DNA from: Eledone cirrhosa | Lineage: Eukaryota | Assembly: GCA_964016885.1 (NCBI GenBank) | Contig: OZ024759.1 | Location: 10,912,001 to 10,976,000 of the forward strand | DNA: 64,000 nucleotides | Direction: 5' to 3' | Shown: positions 13,543 to 58,650 of the stretch, one piece after another | How the letters are laid out: every line of letters starts with the position of its first letter | How positions within the stretch are numbered: position 1 is the stretch's first letter | The notes under the pieces: model-generated | What the model saw: only the letters and a program-made list of their open reading frames with translations | Database searches by the model: none | Told to the model about the DNA's origin: nothing | Made by a program: the position numbers and the translations under genes

Positions 13543-13605
13543 TATTTTATTATATATATGTCAAGGGTACCAAGACACATTGTTACGCTTTCATCAGATA
13601 AAATA
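13543..13605 (-). ncRNA. Decayed hammerhead ribozyme (family A, GAAA changed to GACA)
   Basis: UAUUUUAU-CUGAUGA-AAGCGUAACAA ugugucUUGGUACCCUU-GACA-UAUAUA-UA-AUAAAAUA. Flanks are homologous to the 33.6 kb copy. Confidence 0.6.
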
Positions 13606-13768
13606 CAAAGTTTGTTTTATATATATATATGTATGCATGTGTATATATGTATATATGTATGTATGTGCGTTTGTATGTGTGTATATAAATTATCTAACAA
13701 AAACAAAAATGACATTTAGCGAAGGATTTCTAGTTGGTGGTGGTGGTGTTGGAGAAGGAGTTTAAAAA

Positions 13769-13888
13769 CGGAAGTGAGGAGTGCGCATGTCGGGTTTTAA
13801 AACATGGCGATGTCGCAAAGCGTTGTTGGAAACGGATGTTTATGAAAATGTCTTGGTCAAGGCGTGAGGTGCAACGGTGAGACCAGGG
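13769..13888 (+). promoter_or_regulatory. Putative INPP5E core promoter and non-coding first exon
   Basis: Small CpG-containing island with ETS-like CGGAAGTG (13769), NRF1-like TGCGCATG (13782) and YY1-like AACATGGCG (13801). It ends in a strong donor ggg/GTGAGT at 13889. The coding exon 10.6 kb downstream begins with an acceptor, so an upstream exon is needed. Confidence 0.55.
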
Positions 13889-14407
13889 GTGAGTATATAT
13901 ATACACATAATAATATATATATATATTTATATAGAAATATATAATATATATACATATATACATAATATATATATATATATATATAATATATATTATATAT
14001 ATATAATATATATATTATATATATATATATAATATATATATGTGTAAATGAAGTAATACCGTCGGGAAGGTACAGGAAAAAAGAGTGCTCTATGTAGGCT
14101 ACAGAGCTTATGTATGTATATATATATATATATATATATTTATATATATATATATATATATATATATATATATATATATATATATAATATATATATATAT
14201 CTTTATATATATGCAGAGAAAAATATAGAAAGTATGGTGTGTGTAAGTTTTAAAACATTACATATATGAACTATTTAAACAAAAATACATTATTTCATAA
14301 AACACTTATAAAGAGTTCAAGACCCAGATACACACACACACATCTTTAACTATTTTCTTTTCATTTGTATATAAAAAAAAGTATGATCCTGTTTATTATT
14401 GCGGCAA

Positions 14408-15612
14408 GTAATAATTGTTTCTACTTTTGGCACAAGGCCAGCAATTATCCCACTGTATTACTGGTACTTTATTTTACCGACCCCGTATGGAGGAAAGTCA
14501 AAGTTAACCTCGACGGGATTTGAACCCAGACCGCAAAGAGCCGTAACTCTATGCTGCATAGCATGGCGTACGACTCTCTACCGATACTGCCAATCCACCG
14601 CCCTATAAGAATCTAAACTATAATAAAGTAAGGAGCGCGGGACTGCGTACGGTTTATAATTTTTTTATCCCATTAGTAAAATAAGTTGGATTACTTTGAA
14701 TAAATAATTGTTTCTACTTTAGGCACAAGGCCAGCAAATACCCAGTGCATTACTGGTACTTTATTTTATCGACCCCGTAAGGATGAAAGGCAAAGTCAAC
14801 CTCGGCAGGATTTGAACTCGGATCGTAAAGGGACGTAACTATGCTGGAAAGCATGGCGTCCGACCCTCTACCGATACTCCCAATCCACCGCACTTTGAAT
14901 AAATAATTGTTTCTACTTTAGACACAAGGCCAGCAATCACCCAGTGCATTACTGGTACTTTATTTTTGAATAAATAATGAATGAATATTACATAATTTAT
15001 CTACTAAATTTCGTAACTGTTGATTAAATATATTTTACATAGCCTATTCGATTACTAATAGACACAAGGGTTAGGATTAAAGTATCGGTAGAGTGTCTGA
15101 TAACTTGCTTTGCAGCATATAGTTACGATCCTGAATCCTCTGAGGTTAACTTTGCCTTTCATCCTTACGGGGGTCGATAAAATAAAGTACCAGTAATGAA
15201 ATGGGGTCGATTGAATTGACTTTCTCTTCTTGTTGGCCTTGTGCCCAAAAAAGAAATCATTAATTAGAGGTGGATTGGCAGTATCGGTAGAGGGTCGGAC
15301 GCCATGCTTTGAGGCATAGAGTTACGGCCCTTGCCAGTCTGAGTTCAAATCCCGCCGAGGTTAACTTTGCCTTTCATCCTTACGGGGTCAATAAAATAAA
15401 GTACCAGTAATGAACTGGGTAATTGCTGGCCTTGTGCCTAAAGTAGAAATAATTATTTAAGTCAGTTGTCAATAAGCTCGTTAGGGCCACAAACACCTTA
15501 TCTTATCAATTAATCAGAGAAACATATTTGAATTGTTTGAAGTATTATTAAGGGCTAAAGTACCAGTAATACACTGGGTAATTGCTGGCCTTGTGCCTAA
15601 AGTAGAAACAAT
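14408..15612. mobile_element. Cluster of six SINE family 1 copies or fragments (three on -, then three on +)
   Basis: Direct sequence match to 3369-3558 in both orientations. Confidence 0.8.
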
Positions 15613-16069
15613 TAATTACTAATAAACTCACAAAAAAAAAGCATTACTATTATTGAATAAAAACGATAGTACCAGTAAAATACTGTGGCTGATTCAATCT
15701 AACTCCCTCTCCACCAAATCTGAAGTCTTGTGCCGGTCTTAGAAACAGTGTGGTTAAGGGTTGCACTCAAAATTATAAGGTTATAGGTTCAATTCCTAGA
15801 CCGGGTAGGAGGGTTTTGTGTTCTTGAGCAAGACACACTCTTTCTTCATTAACTGTGGTGAGAGATGGTAGGGTGGTGTGTATCTTTTCTTTCTGATTCA
15901 TTGACCCTAGTATTTATGTTTGCTAGCAGGGAAACCAGTCATAAAATGGGGACTATCATCATTAAACGACCACTTTCCCTGCTAGCAAGGGCCGGAAAGG
16001 TCATCGGCTGACCATCAGGTCCGGTGGCAGTCTGACCGACAGGTCATCTGTAGCTGACCCAGCTGGTAC

Positions 16070-16832
16070 TTAACCCTTTAGCATTTACATTACTCTATAT
16101 ATACTATTGTATTGTCGCAGTAAAGGCTTTACCTCACATAATAGCTCACATAACATTTACATTACTCTATATATACTATTGTATTGTCACAGTAAAGGCT
16201 TTACCTGACATAATATCTCACATAACATTTACATTACTCTATATATACTATTGTATTGTCACAGTAAAGGCTTTACCTCACATAACATTTACATTACTCT
16301 ATATATACTATTGTATTGTCACAGTACAGGCTTTACCTCACATAATATCTCACATAACATTCACATTACTCTATATATACTATTGTATTGTCAAGGTAAA
16401 GGCTTTACCTCACATAATATCTCACATAACCTTTACATTACTCTATATATACTATTGTATTGTCACAGTAAAGGCTTTACCTCACATAATACCTCACATA
16501 ACATTTACATTACTCTATATATACTATTGTATTGTCACAGTAAAGGCTTTACTTCACATAATATCTCACATAACATTTACATTACTCTATATATACTATT
16601 GTATTGTCACAGTAAAGGCTTTACCTCACATAATACCTCACATAACATTTACATTACTCTATATATACTATTGTATTGTCACAGTAAAGGCTCACATAAT
16701 ATCGAATCTGACATTTTGATATTATTTATTTTGGGAACAATACCTTAACAGTTTGTATGAGTGGCCAGTTTGAAGAGAAAGGGATGAGAGAATTCTGGCC
16801 GGATATGGCTGGTTTAAATGGTAAAGGGTTAA
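16070..16832 (+). mobile_element. piggyBac-like MITE (TTAA-CCCTTTAGCATTTA...TAAATGGTAAAGGG-TTAA) with internal tandem expansion. Other copies: 7518-8137, 20160-20542, 26844-27391, 48167-48838, 56190-56772; partial 54353-54460
   Basis: TTAA target-site duplication, CCC/GGG terminal inverted repeats, shared internal sequence. Confidence 0.75.
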
Positions 16833-56558: not shown

Positions 56559-57748
56559 AATGATTACTCTATATTTACTATTATATTTTAATGGTAAAAC
56601 CTTTATCTCACATAAATATCTCACATAATATCGAATCTATAAGACTTTGATATTATTTATTTTGAGGACAATACCTTAACATCAGTATGAGTGGCTTGTT
56701 ATGGCCAGTTTGAACAGAAAGAGTTGAAAGAAATATGGCCAGATATGTCTGGTTTAAATACTAAAAGGTTAATATCTGTATTCCCTTCTAGTAAGGGTTT
56801 GACATGGACAGGTGGCCAGAGATCAAATCACTACTTAATCAGTGATATTAATCTCTTAGAGAGGCGGGGACGGGGGGGGGGGGCACATCTCACATAGTCA
56901 CATATTTTACAGAGTGTAGTGGGTGGTGGAGGTGGTGATGATGATGATGGGGGGTAGTAGTGATAATGATGGCTGTGATGATAATGATGATGGTGGAAAT
57001 AATGATGATAGCAGTGGTGGAGGTGATGATAATGATAGTAGTAATGGTGATGATGATGGTGTTGGTAGTGGTGATGGTGGTGATAATGATGATAGTAGTG
57101 GTGATGGTGATGGTGATGGTGATGATGATGGTCTAATCTTGTTCCCCTTCAAGCCTAACACAACAATGTCCACATGTCTGTTAACAATAATTCAAGACAA
57201 ACCACAATAACAAGAAGCATTTTAATAACCTTTTAACCATTTTCTCTGCTAAACCAAGGGTCAAGCTCTCCCCTATTCTCTACATACATTCTCACCAAAT
57301 CCCTGGCTTTTATTTCCACCTTATAAACCTGAATATTTTCAAATGAAACTCCACACAAACATTACACAAAATATATTTCATTTTTTGAAAAATCAAATCA
57401 AAACAAGATAAAACAAATTAATGTTTATTTCCAAATCCGACGAATTTCTCGTCCGCCTTTTTAACCTTGTGTCAACGTACGGAAAGAAATATCCGGTCAG
57501 CCGAAGAATTATGGACTAAATGTAAACAGGTTACATTACACATTATTACACCGGTCCAAAGAAAAAAGAAGAAGCGAGAGATACATTTGACGGCTTGTTT
57601 GTTGTTTTGTTTGCCTTCTTTAAATATCTAATACAAAGGTCGATGTGATAAAAACAACATATATATATATTTAAAAATGCGATTTGGGAGTATAATATAT
57701 ACACCAAAATTTATATCAGACATAGTAGGTCGAATACAGCGGAACAAA

Positions 57749-57912
57749 ATGTTGGTGAAAGTAGCTGCCTTCTCTGGTCTGGGTGCTTTACTCGTCCATT
57801 CTGCTAGAATACCTTTATCCTTAGCTGGACTTGGTGTTTTTGGTGCTTATGTTATTACTGGTGGATGGCATTTCATATGGGTTATCTGCAACACATTAGG
57901 ACGAGATCTATG
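57749..57912 (+). CDS. First coding exon of a long-chain fatty acid transport protein (FATP1/FATP4, SLC27A1/4-like); the gene continues beyond the window
   Basis: MLVKVAAFSGLGALLVHSARIPLSLAGLGVFGAYVITGGWHFIWVICNTLGRDL resembles the FATP1/4 N-terminus (hydrophobic segment, then GGWRF.....T.RRD). Donor tg/gtcagt. An in-frame upstream ATG exists at 57677. Confidence 0.75.
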
Positions 57913-58361
57913 GTCAGTCAACAACTTTGCTTTTATGTTTTCTGTTTTAATTTCTTCTTACCATTTCTTACCTTAATTCTTTCTTCAGGATTATATATTT
58001 ATTATTCCATTCACACACCCTTTCCCGTTTATTCATCCCCCCTCCCCCCCGGGGGGTGTAACATACACTTTCTCTATTCTGTCTGCTGGGTCCATGATGC
58101 GGCTTCTTTCACCCGTGTTTTCAGTCTTGTCCCACATTCTCCAGGTATATATATATATATAATATATATATATATATGTATGTATATATATATATATATA
58201 TATATACATGGAGAATATGGGACAAGACTGAAAACCCGGGTGAAAGAATGCGGCTTCTTTCACCCGCGTTTTCAGTCTTGTCCCACATTCTCCAGGTGTA
58301 TATATATATATATATTATACAATATTAAATAAATGGAAAACTATATTTATAAAACCATATT

Positions 58362-58427
58362 TATTTCATTATATATATTTCGGGGATATCATATTAACAA
58401 TATGCTATGCCTTCATCAGACAAAATA
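58362..58427 (-). ncRNA. Minimal type-I hammerhead ribozyme (family A, inverted partner of 58585-58650)
   Basis: Reverse-complement copy within the 58318-58694 palindrome. Confidence 0.75.
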
Positions 58428-58584
58428 CAATATAAACAGTTTTATAGATAAATATATTCGACATACCGTAATAAACATCAACTTCATTTGAAGAGGTTTA
58501 CGCTAGCAGAGTGAACCTCTTCAAATGAAGTTGATGTTTATTACGGTATGTCGAATATATTTATCTATAAAACTGTTTATATTG

Positions 58585-58650
58585 TATTTTGTCTGATGAA
58601 GGCATAGCATATTGTTAATATGATATCCCCGAAATATATATAATGAAATA
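58585..58650 (+). ncRNA. Minimal type-I hammerhead ribozyme (family A)
   Basis: UAUUUUGU-CUGAUGA-AGGCAUAGCAUAUU guu AAUAUGAUAUCCCC-GAAA-U AUAU A-UA^AUGAAAUA. Stem I is kept through G-U pairs. Confidence 0.75.

Follow-up and report, generated by a model that had tools for sequence, protein, structure and literature searches.

What keeps the fold of a self-cutting RNA motif recognizable while the letters of its helices change from copy to copy is the question raised by a 64,000-nucleotide stretch of the Eledone cirrhosa genome (contig OZ024759.1, positions 10,912,001 to 10,976,000; hereafter the window), which consists of AT-rich, microsatellite-rich animal DNA from a 3.0 Gb assembly. Hammerhead-like motifs recur along the window, and an initial annotation read the different yet self-complementary stems II of one group of them, family A, as a sign of selection on ribozyme structure and of a very large, under-annotated ribozyme repertoire. 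It missed the carrier of these motifs, namely Penelope-like elements (PLEs), for which hammerheads are published. We consider it probable that several Hydra-type Penelope families carry type I hammerheads near their 3′ end, that the fold is kept by selection on few source elements, with dimer cutting as its predicted activity, and that the inserted copies decay neutrally.

Ten hammerhead-like motifs were counted in the window (Table 1), the "about ten" of the initial annotation: seven of the family-A class, an inverted pair of family B and one decayed minimal motif. Six family-A motifs with the shared consensus were found at the four loci for which it had been reported. The motifs are type I hammerhead folds, predicted to cut themselves. 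In hammerhead numbering, the type I core (C3-U4-G5-A6-N7-G8-A9, G12-A13-A14, A15.1-U16.1 and H17, in type I order) is whole in seven of the ten, while the remaining three bear one core change each (A14C at 13.5 kb, G5A at 24.2 kb and G12A at 47.9 kb), and five pass a strict descriptor of all stems. The C of the proposed consensus GA(A/C)A proved to be no family variant, as it is the private A14C of the 13.5 kb copy, found in 1 of 146 parsed copies. A type I descriptor returned six cores in the window against a mean of 0.31 and a maximum of 2 in 100 block-wise dinucleotide shuffles, so that motif density does not equal that of shuffled AT-rich sequence; the minus-strand copy at 38.1 kb (38116-38182), with one helix I change, lies outside these six. 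A covariance model built from 24 copies found in the window the six family-A motifs, a seventh of the same class (24157-24222, minus strand, E = 2.6e-05) and one chance-level match. Type II and type III descriptors had no match in the window. Neither the 150 of 491 Rfam matches listed for the whole window nor the 71 for 12 excised stretches (E ≤ 10) include a hammerhead family; the Rfam matches were of microRNA type only, on repeats and palindromes, and were rejected.

Covariation was measured on an alignment (A1) of 14 multi-copy cluster representatives and 10 of 22 singletons, the other 12 being omitted as decayed, indel-bearing or redundant. Pairing is kept in 94.4% of 479 cells and seven of the eight helix II pairs change on both sides; none of 500 shuffles reached the observed value and slid controls gave 35-58%. 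An alignment fitted to the model (104 distinct matches from 98 loci) agrees with A1 and leans to structure. When strands were swapped between families, eight lineages gave 2/40320. Over 11 families, helix II pairs 2, 3, 5 and 6 pair in 44 of 44 cells (swap mean 30.9; 0/100,000) and helix I in 54 of 55, and the eight deeper families pair in 37 of 40 cells (12/100,000), permutation values that overstate independence because the families are related and ascertained. The 11-family test adds four families from outside the model (A24 and F1-F3), and a candidate F4 (L306), which is without U16.1, was excluded from it. The covariation of the predicted helices is thus real between element families. The four loci of the initial annotation alone give no better than p = 1/24 in the strand-swap test; its statement on stem II holds once the strands are placed in register, but the four segments that it quoted do not correspond to one another within helix II: that of 58 kb is the distal part, that of 33.6 kb needs a bulged C and that of 13.5 kb holds an A-G mismatch.

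The fold itself has a distinct layout. Helix II pair 4 never pairs, being C-C in nine and C-U in two of the 11 families, and C-C or C-U in 120 of 135 distinct motifs of the class, while pair 1 (10.1-11.1) is loose and occurs in five states (A-U, G-U, G-C, U-U and A-C). Helix I has 8 bp in family A and in most families continues beyond an internal loop. Helix III is self-complementary, with 6-nt palindromes in at least three versions (A/U, wobble and G/C), and two strands form an 8-bp homoduplex, although a single one gives no hairpin. Concerning a tertiary contact between loop 1 and loop 2, no pairing partner was found for the extended helix I or the pair-4 mismatch. Among 100 copies picked by their flanks only and counted by eye, position 7 is not U in 30 (all four bases occur), with 7 single changes over the other ten core positions; in pooled contigs of one sequencing run position 7 is likewise the only frequent core change, and H17 is never G in the 11 family representatives. 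No RNA record was listed for 58330-58760 of the window, and the contigs of the four runs compared bear no information on expression. It is conceivable, though we regard it as doubtful, that the family-A class is an undescribed type I subclass in which the extended helix I docks on the invariant pair-4 C facing C or U instead of on loop 2, and in which efficient dimer cleavage is needed by Hydra-type elements to spread. If this were true, the genome, with some 10^5 intact type I motifs, would rank with the animal genomes of highest ribozyme density described so far, and the role of PLE ribozymes could be tested directly in a dozen families that evolve independently.

As for the carriers, a frame for a GIY-YIG-like endonuclease in the window (34174-34788, family A34) has about 60,000 first-look candidates in the genome, and its relatives are followed about 1 kb downstream by a sister motif on the same strand. 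The A34 fragment in the window has no 3′ hammerhead of its own; it lies in the host-sense direction (33805-35149) and ends about 70 nt before a host exon. At other loci, same-strand endonuclease frames are found 1.3-1.9 kb upstream of the motif types of 33.6, 38 and 58 kb, the overall position of the motif being 1.0-1.9 kb downstream of such a frame, and a motif identical to the right arm of A58 lies 1.5 kb downstream of a frame for reverse transcriptase (RT) and endonuclease (locus L250). A whole element was recovered at locus L092, where a motif, a frame for RT, linker and GIY-YIG and a second motif are followed by a tail and (TA)n; its direct repeats, or pseudo-long terminal repeats (pseudo-LTRs), measure 618 nt, lie 3.67 kb apart and each carry a motif. 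The endonuclease frames of A33, A38 and A58 are only 38-77% identical to each other, and these are therefore separate element families rather than copies of one repeat. For A33, A38, A58 and A34, family-A homology also continues upstream over 1-1.5 kb into coding elements. Three of the frames (L091, L092 and L113), read by eye, show GIY-YIG C-terminal to RT and the marks DKT, RW (RWK as RWI), CxCX5C linker, no CCHH, CxxC and CxH; the Hydra-clade assignment rests on these protein motifs. Judged from their sequences, the carriers are several Penelope-like retroelement families with Hydra-clade protein motifs. Their insertions target (TA)n, and the 3′ ends of inserted copies are discrete, at 42-50 or 125-135 nt beyond helix I. 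At 38, 39 and 58 kb the palindromes stem from inverted, 5′-truncated partners, and they fold as near-perfect hairpins that would hide the motif. Such hairpins of 160-195 bp are expected in host pre-mRNA from 38060-38385, 38900-39290 and 58310-58700 of the window, and double-strand RNA editing or silencing might act on them.

The abundance of the motifs was estimated by pattern and by sampling. Exact patterns matched 32,544 times genome-wide, 29,303 times with flank anchors only and 55,666 times with a general six-base palindrome, each with a reversed control of 0. A general descriptor was also applied to 36 stretches of myosin and dynein genes (955 kb of gene interiors, the flanks of dynein matches and one 40 kb myosin stretch being assumed to be intragenic), and returned 60 intact type I motifs in 14 of the 36, against one in the reversed sequence. 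This corresponds to about 63 motifs/Mb, and 30 of the 60 belong to the family-A class. By the same descriptor the window holds five, or 78/Mb, and appears typical. Extrapolation from this sample, which is non-random and has clustered motifs, gives 1.4-2.4 × 10^5 intact type I motifs in the genome. The large, under-annotated repertoire proposed at first is therefore borne out as a count (55,666 exact matches, about 63/Mb in gene interiors and no Rfam match) but not as a maintained repertoire, and the motifs are a huge mobile-element load rather than a demonstrated host ribozyme repertoire. Tens of thousands of them escape Rfam-based annotation, and they are retroelement ends, not demonstrated host regulators. 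The 955 kb sampled also hold at least eight more type I hammerhead families, with helix III palindromes of 2, 4, 5 and 7 nt (L278-L377). Within one myosin gene, at about 169.27-169.30 Mb (G000:C3, L310/L311), tandem units of about 310 nt carry a minimal hammerhead each, six copies on one strand and one inverted with (TA)n at the end, in a retrozyme-like arrangement.

Whether selection reaches the inserted copies was assessed on 69 loci collected through the endonuclease only, with no condition on the ribozyme, which gave 57 copies spanning the motif. Single changes fell on the core in 7 of 625 positions (5.6 expected) and on the flanks in 53 of 4864 (p = 0.84); over all structured positions 36 were observed and 33.8 expected, and the core was already changed or gapped in 9 of the 57 copies. 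An earlier comparison of core and flanks (p = 0.001) was rejected because its copies had been picked by core patterns, and another (p = 0.018) was rejected as evidence at the level of copies, as shared sub-lineage variants or badly aligned flanks had been counted in both comparisons. With shared variants included, the p = 0.018 arises because flanks change more freely between sub-lineages, i.e., it points to selection on sources. In introns, the depletion of intact sense copies suggested as a test by the initial annotation was not detected in the gene stretches, with 9 sense and 15 antisense solo intact motifs (p = 0.31) and, for the family-A class, 4 sense and 5 antisense; of its intact motifs, 22 of 31 stand in inverted pairs. 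Other repeats of the same stretches have strand ratios of 31:27, 89:68 and 98:60, and this unevenness means that an intron strand-bias test needs a baseline. Both the core-versus-flank and the intron tests are small, so that a moderate effect or a few domesticated copies would escape them. Selection on ribozyme structure is thus supported for the source element families, while inserted copies, in which the core mutates as fast as the flanks, appear to decay neutrally, and a reading of the genomic copies as a maintained ribozyme repertoire is not supported. In family A24 (L199-L217), positions 11.1-12 form a CpG that frequently carries mutations (G12A or C to T), the pattern expected of methylation-driven decay. 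G5A in 4 of 20 A24 copies was attributed to a search favouring the query allele rather than to a spreading dead lineage.

A transcript through a tandem element would likely hold two sense motifs, whose palindromic helices III would pair. Both paired motifs may then be cleaved behind the A-U-A triplet, which is described as natural but slow (PMC1636495), and cutting would release unit-length RNA, perhaps to be circularised, from longer transcripts driven by the host, an outcome already proposed for PLE hammerheads by Cervera and De la Peña (2014; PMC4209133). Copies that stand alone would show next to no activity, in agreement with their tolerance in introns. As inserted copies hold the whole motif plus 42-50 or 125-135 nt, the copied 3′ ribozyme would have been either uncut or re-joined in the template. 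Several observations weigh against this explanation. No pile-up of 5′ ends occurs at the predicted cut in 37 A34 copies, 60 A33 copies or the A58 and A58-like sets, in a sample enriched for whole motifs, and hammerhead mutants of an anole PLE were without effect on insertion in vitro (PMC11167929, as far as its available text goes). The hammerhead fold lies 2.8-7.2 kcal/mol above the minimum-energy fold in all 14 representatives, and folding z-scores of six window copies reach only -2.1 to +0.2. On the side of the carrier, the endonuclease frame of the window has a weak Pfam score (E = 0.042), the RT was not recognised by Pfam or PDB sequence searches, and the search for a coding partner of A13 (0 of 4 loci) and of A24 (0 of 5 loci) was without success. 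Additionally, A24 and F1-F3 were found through a model or descriptor that rewards pairing, and the relatedness of the families tempers the permutation values given above.

Part of this evidence would suit a role of the fold, selected in the sources, as a protein-binding or template-positioning signal for RT and endonuclease, with cleavage weak or incidental. Reverse transcription starts 42-50 or 125-135 nt past the motif and reads through it uncut, the invariant unpaired C and the long helix II could be a protein site, insertion of the anole PLE needed no cleavage in vitro (PMC11167929) and, in the available part of the 2014 report, metazoan PLE motifs are poor cleavers in vitro (PMC4209133). 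What is conserved, however, is exactly what catalysis demands, with ten core bases fixed, position 7 free and H17 never G in 11 representatives, and the self-complementarity of helix III is kept in A/U, wobble and G/C versions alike; we therefore hold a pure signal to be unlikely. It is far less probable that host selection maintains or purges inserted copies for cutting host transcripts, as in a large host-useful repertoire. Their high density and the minus-strand position of all four window solos, opposite the host exons seen, would agree with it, but the equal rates of change in core (7/625) and flanks (53/4864, p = 0.84), the lack of strand bias (9 versus 15, p = 0.31; family-A class, 4 versus 5) and the broken cores of three of the four window solos do not, with the reservation that in tests of this size a few exapted copies would be invisible.

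Marginally less credit than to host use is given to family A as a non-autonomous retrozyme, i.e., a short tandem repeat that spreads via small circular RNAs. Most copies are indeed short and non-coding, A13 and A24 are without a coding partner so far, and the same genome holds a 310-nt tandem array with another hammerhead; family-A copies, however, were seen solo or inverted and not in tandem units of 150-450 nt, and A33, A38, A58 and A34 are linked to coding elements by the upstream homology described above. A chance resemblance within AT-rich repeats, for which the base composition, the want of an Rfam match and the weak folding energies might speak, is already refuted by the controls (a shuffle mean of 0.31 against 6, reversed patterns at 0 against 32,544, 29,303 and 55,666, and a reversed-sequence background of 1 against 60), and we give it next to no weight. 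Selection on source elements for a cutting fold thus remains the explanation that we prefer, and it bears on why Penelope-like elements carry hammerheads, given that these are poor cleavers in vitro and that insertion in the one purified system did without them. The catalytic core is retained, and the helices are rebuilt by matched changes, in at least 11 families; this argues for an in vivo value to the element. The 11 families are also natural variants for assays, and the fixed helix II mismatch offers a concrete structural lead.

The system is real and well supported, and it is of a known kind, since PLE hammerheads with covarying families were described in 2014 and Hydra-clade ones in 2021; it adds one new structural feature, the fixed pair-4 mismatch, and its count is very high. 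The comparisons that follow refer to the accessible text of the papers cited. Cervera and De la Peña (2014; PMC4209133) described type I hammerheads in pseudo-LTRs of metazoan PLEs, with opposite-strand pairs, a palindromic helix III, covariation-rich families and about 2,000-9,000 motifs per genome. The elements presented here are alike in the terminal repeats of an RT plus GIY-YIG element and in the short palindromic helix III, and family C of the window fits the consensus of the minimal hammerhead ribozyme (min-HHR) of that work. Family A differs, as its helix I of 8 bp with a distal helix past an internal loop contrasts with the short helix I of the min-HHR, it is without the conserved bulge before 10.1 and the fixed G10.1-C11.1, it bears the invariant C-C/C-U mismatch, and here 55,666 or more motifs were counted. 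A weak or mismatched pair 10.1-11.1 has been noted elsewhere (PMC3088659).

Craig et al. (2021; PMC8557442) defined the Hydra clade among PLEs with a C-terminal endonuclease (EN+) and listed hammerheads that include that of Hydra-1_Obim from Octopus bimaculoides. Our elements share with this clade DKT, RW, CxCX5C, no CCHH, CxxC, CxH, (TA)n targets and a hammerhead near the 3′ end, and family B of the window looks like the listed Hydra motifs. On the other hand, the unit of 3.67 kb with a 3′ untranslated region of 1-1.9 kb exceeds the published size of generally <3 kb, a tendency and not a rule; the listed hammerheads have 3-7 bp in helix II and 3-4 bp in helix III, none of those in the accessible text has the family-A layout, and the listed octopus motif differs in sequence (PMC8557442). 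Octopus Penelope elements have also been annotated in a work whose available text is without the word hammerhead (PMC13282606). The Poseidon element PAc of the green anole resembles ours in two RT start sites downstream of the hammerhead, which define a "tail", and in an uncut RNA template, but its tail is 30-40 nt against about 80-85 nt here, and it belongs to another clade with another helix layout (PMC11167929). Non-LTR retrozymes likewise bear PLE-related type I hammerheads in very high numbers (PMC7229834; bioRxiv 10.64898/2026.07.22.740005), up to 120,000 in the axolotl (PMC7229834), whereas family A is tied to coding elements, and no short tandem arrays of it were observed. The literature searched contained no account of the fixed pair-4 mismatch or of family A, although subscription papers, figures and the supplements of PMC4209133 and of the preprint could hold one.

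Table 1. Hammerhead motifs and the element fragment annotated in the window (window positions; positions returned by the descriptor in brackets).
Feature	Position	Strand	Found by
Family-A hammerhead, subfamily A13; core change A14C; 5′-truncated short element end between (TA)n runs	13543..13605 (descriptor 13545-13603)	-	
Family-A-class hammerhead (seventh), family A24; core change G5A; other helix I/II pairs, same C-C mismatch	24157..24222	-	covariance model
Family-A hammerhead A33; core intact; tail to ~33541, then (TA)n; inverted tail piece ~33720-33803	33584..33648 (descriptor 33586-33646)	-	
Hydra-type Penelope-like element fragment (putative), family A34; inverted tail 33805-33918; body 33930-35149 with linker and GIY-YIG frame 34174-34788	33805..35149	+	
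Family-A hammerhead A38; left arm of inverted insertion; one helix I mismatch	38116..38182	-	
Family-A hammerhead A38; right arm; intact	38259..38325 (descriptor 38261-38323)	+	
Family-B hammerhead; short helix II; 4-nt palindrome; left arm of inverted insertion 38900-39290	39018..39058	-	
Family-B hammerhead; right arm; intact; similar to published Hydra-clade motifs	39130..39170	+	descriptor
Family-C minimal hammerhead; decayed (G12A); intact versions at other loci	47908..47943	-	
Family-A hammerhead A58; left arm of inverted insertion; short tail, then (TA)n	58362..58427 (descriptor 58364-58425)	-	
Family-A hammerhead A58; right arm; long tail to ~58781, then (TA)n	58585..58650 (descriptor 58587-58648)	+	

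Apart from these features, the window contains other palindromic or repeated inserts beside (TA)n that are without a type I core (11525-11663, 32033-32243, 58084-58259, 58779-58865 and 59147-59191), a 4.4 kb (AT)n-rich run broken by a short repeat (49161-53629) and, elsewhere, minisatellite arrays with units of 48, 66, 72 and 95 nt. Host exons on the plus strand between 24495 and 42350 belong to what we take to be an inositol polyphosphate 5-phosphatase-like gene, a name for which PF22669 is the sole support. The first exon of another host gene (57746-57890, plus strand) has no Pfam match and is part of what is probably, as we presume, a gene for a fatty-acid transport protein. The frame of the 3′ part of a long interspersed nuclear element (LINE), with C2H2-like fingers, lies on the minus strand at 46888-47880. 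Outside the window, locus L109 holds a different Penelope-type RT frame (1-1320, minus strand) and L111 a Helitron-like helicase frame (1-1427, minus strand).

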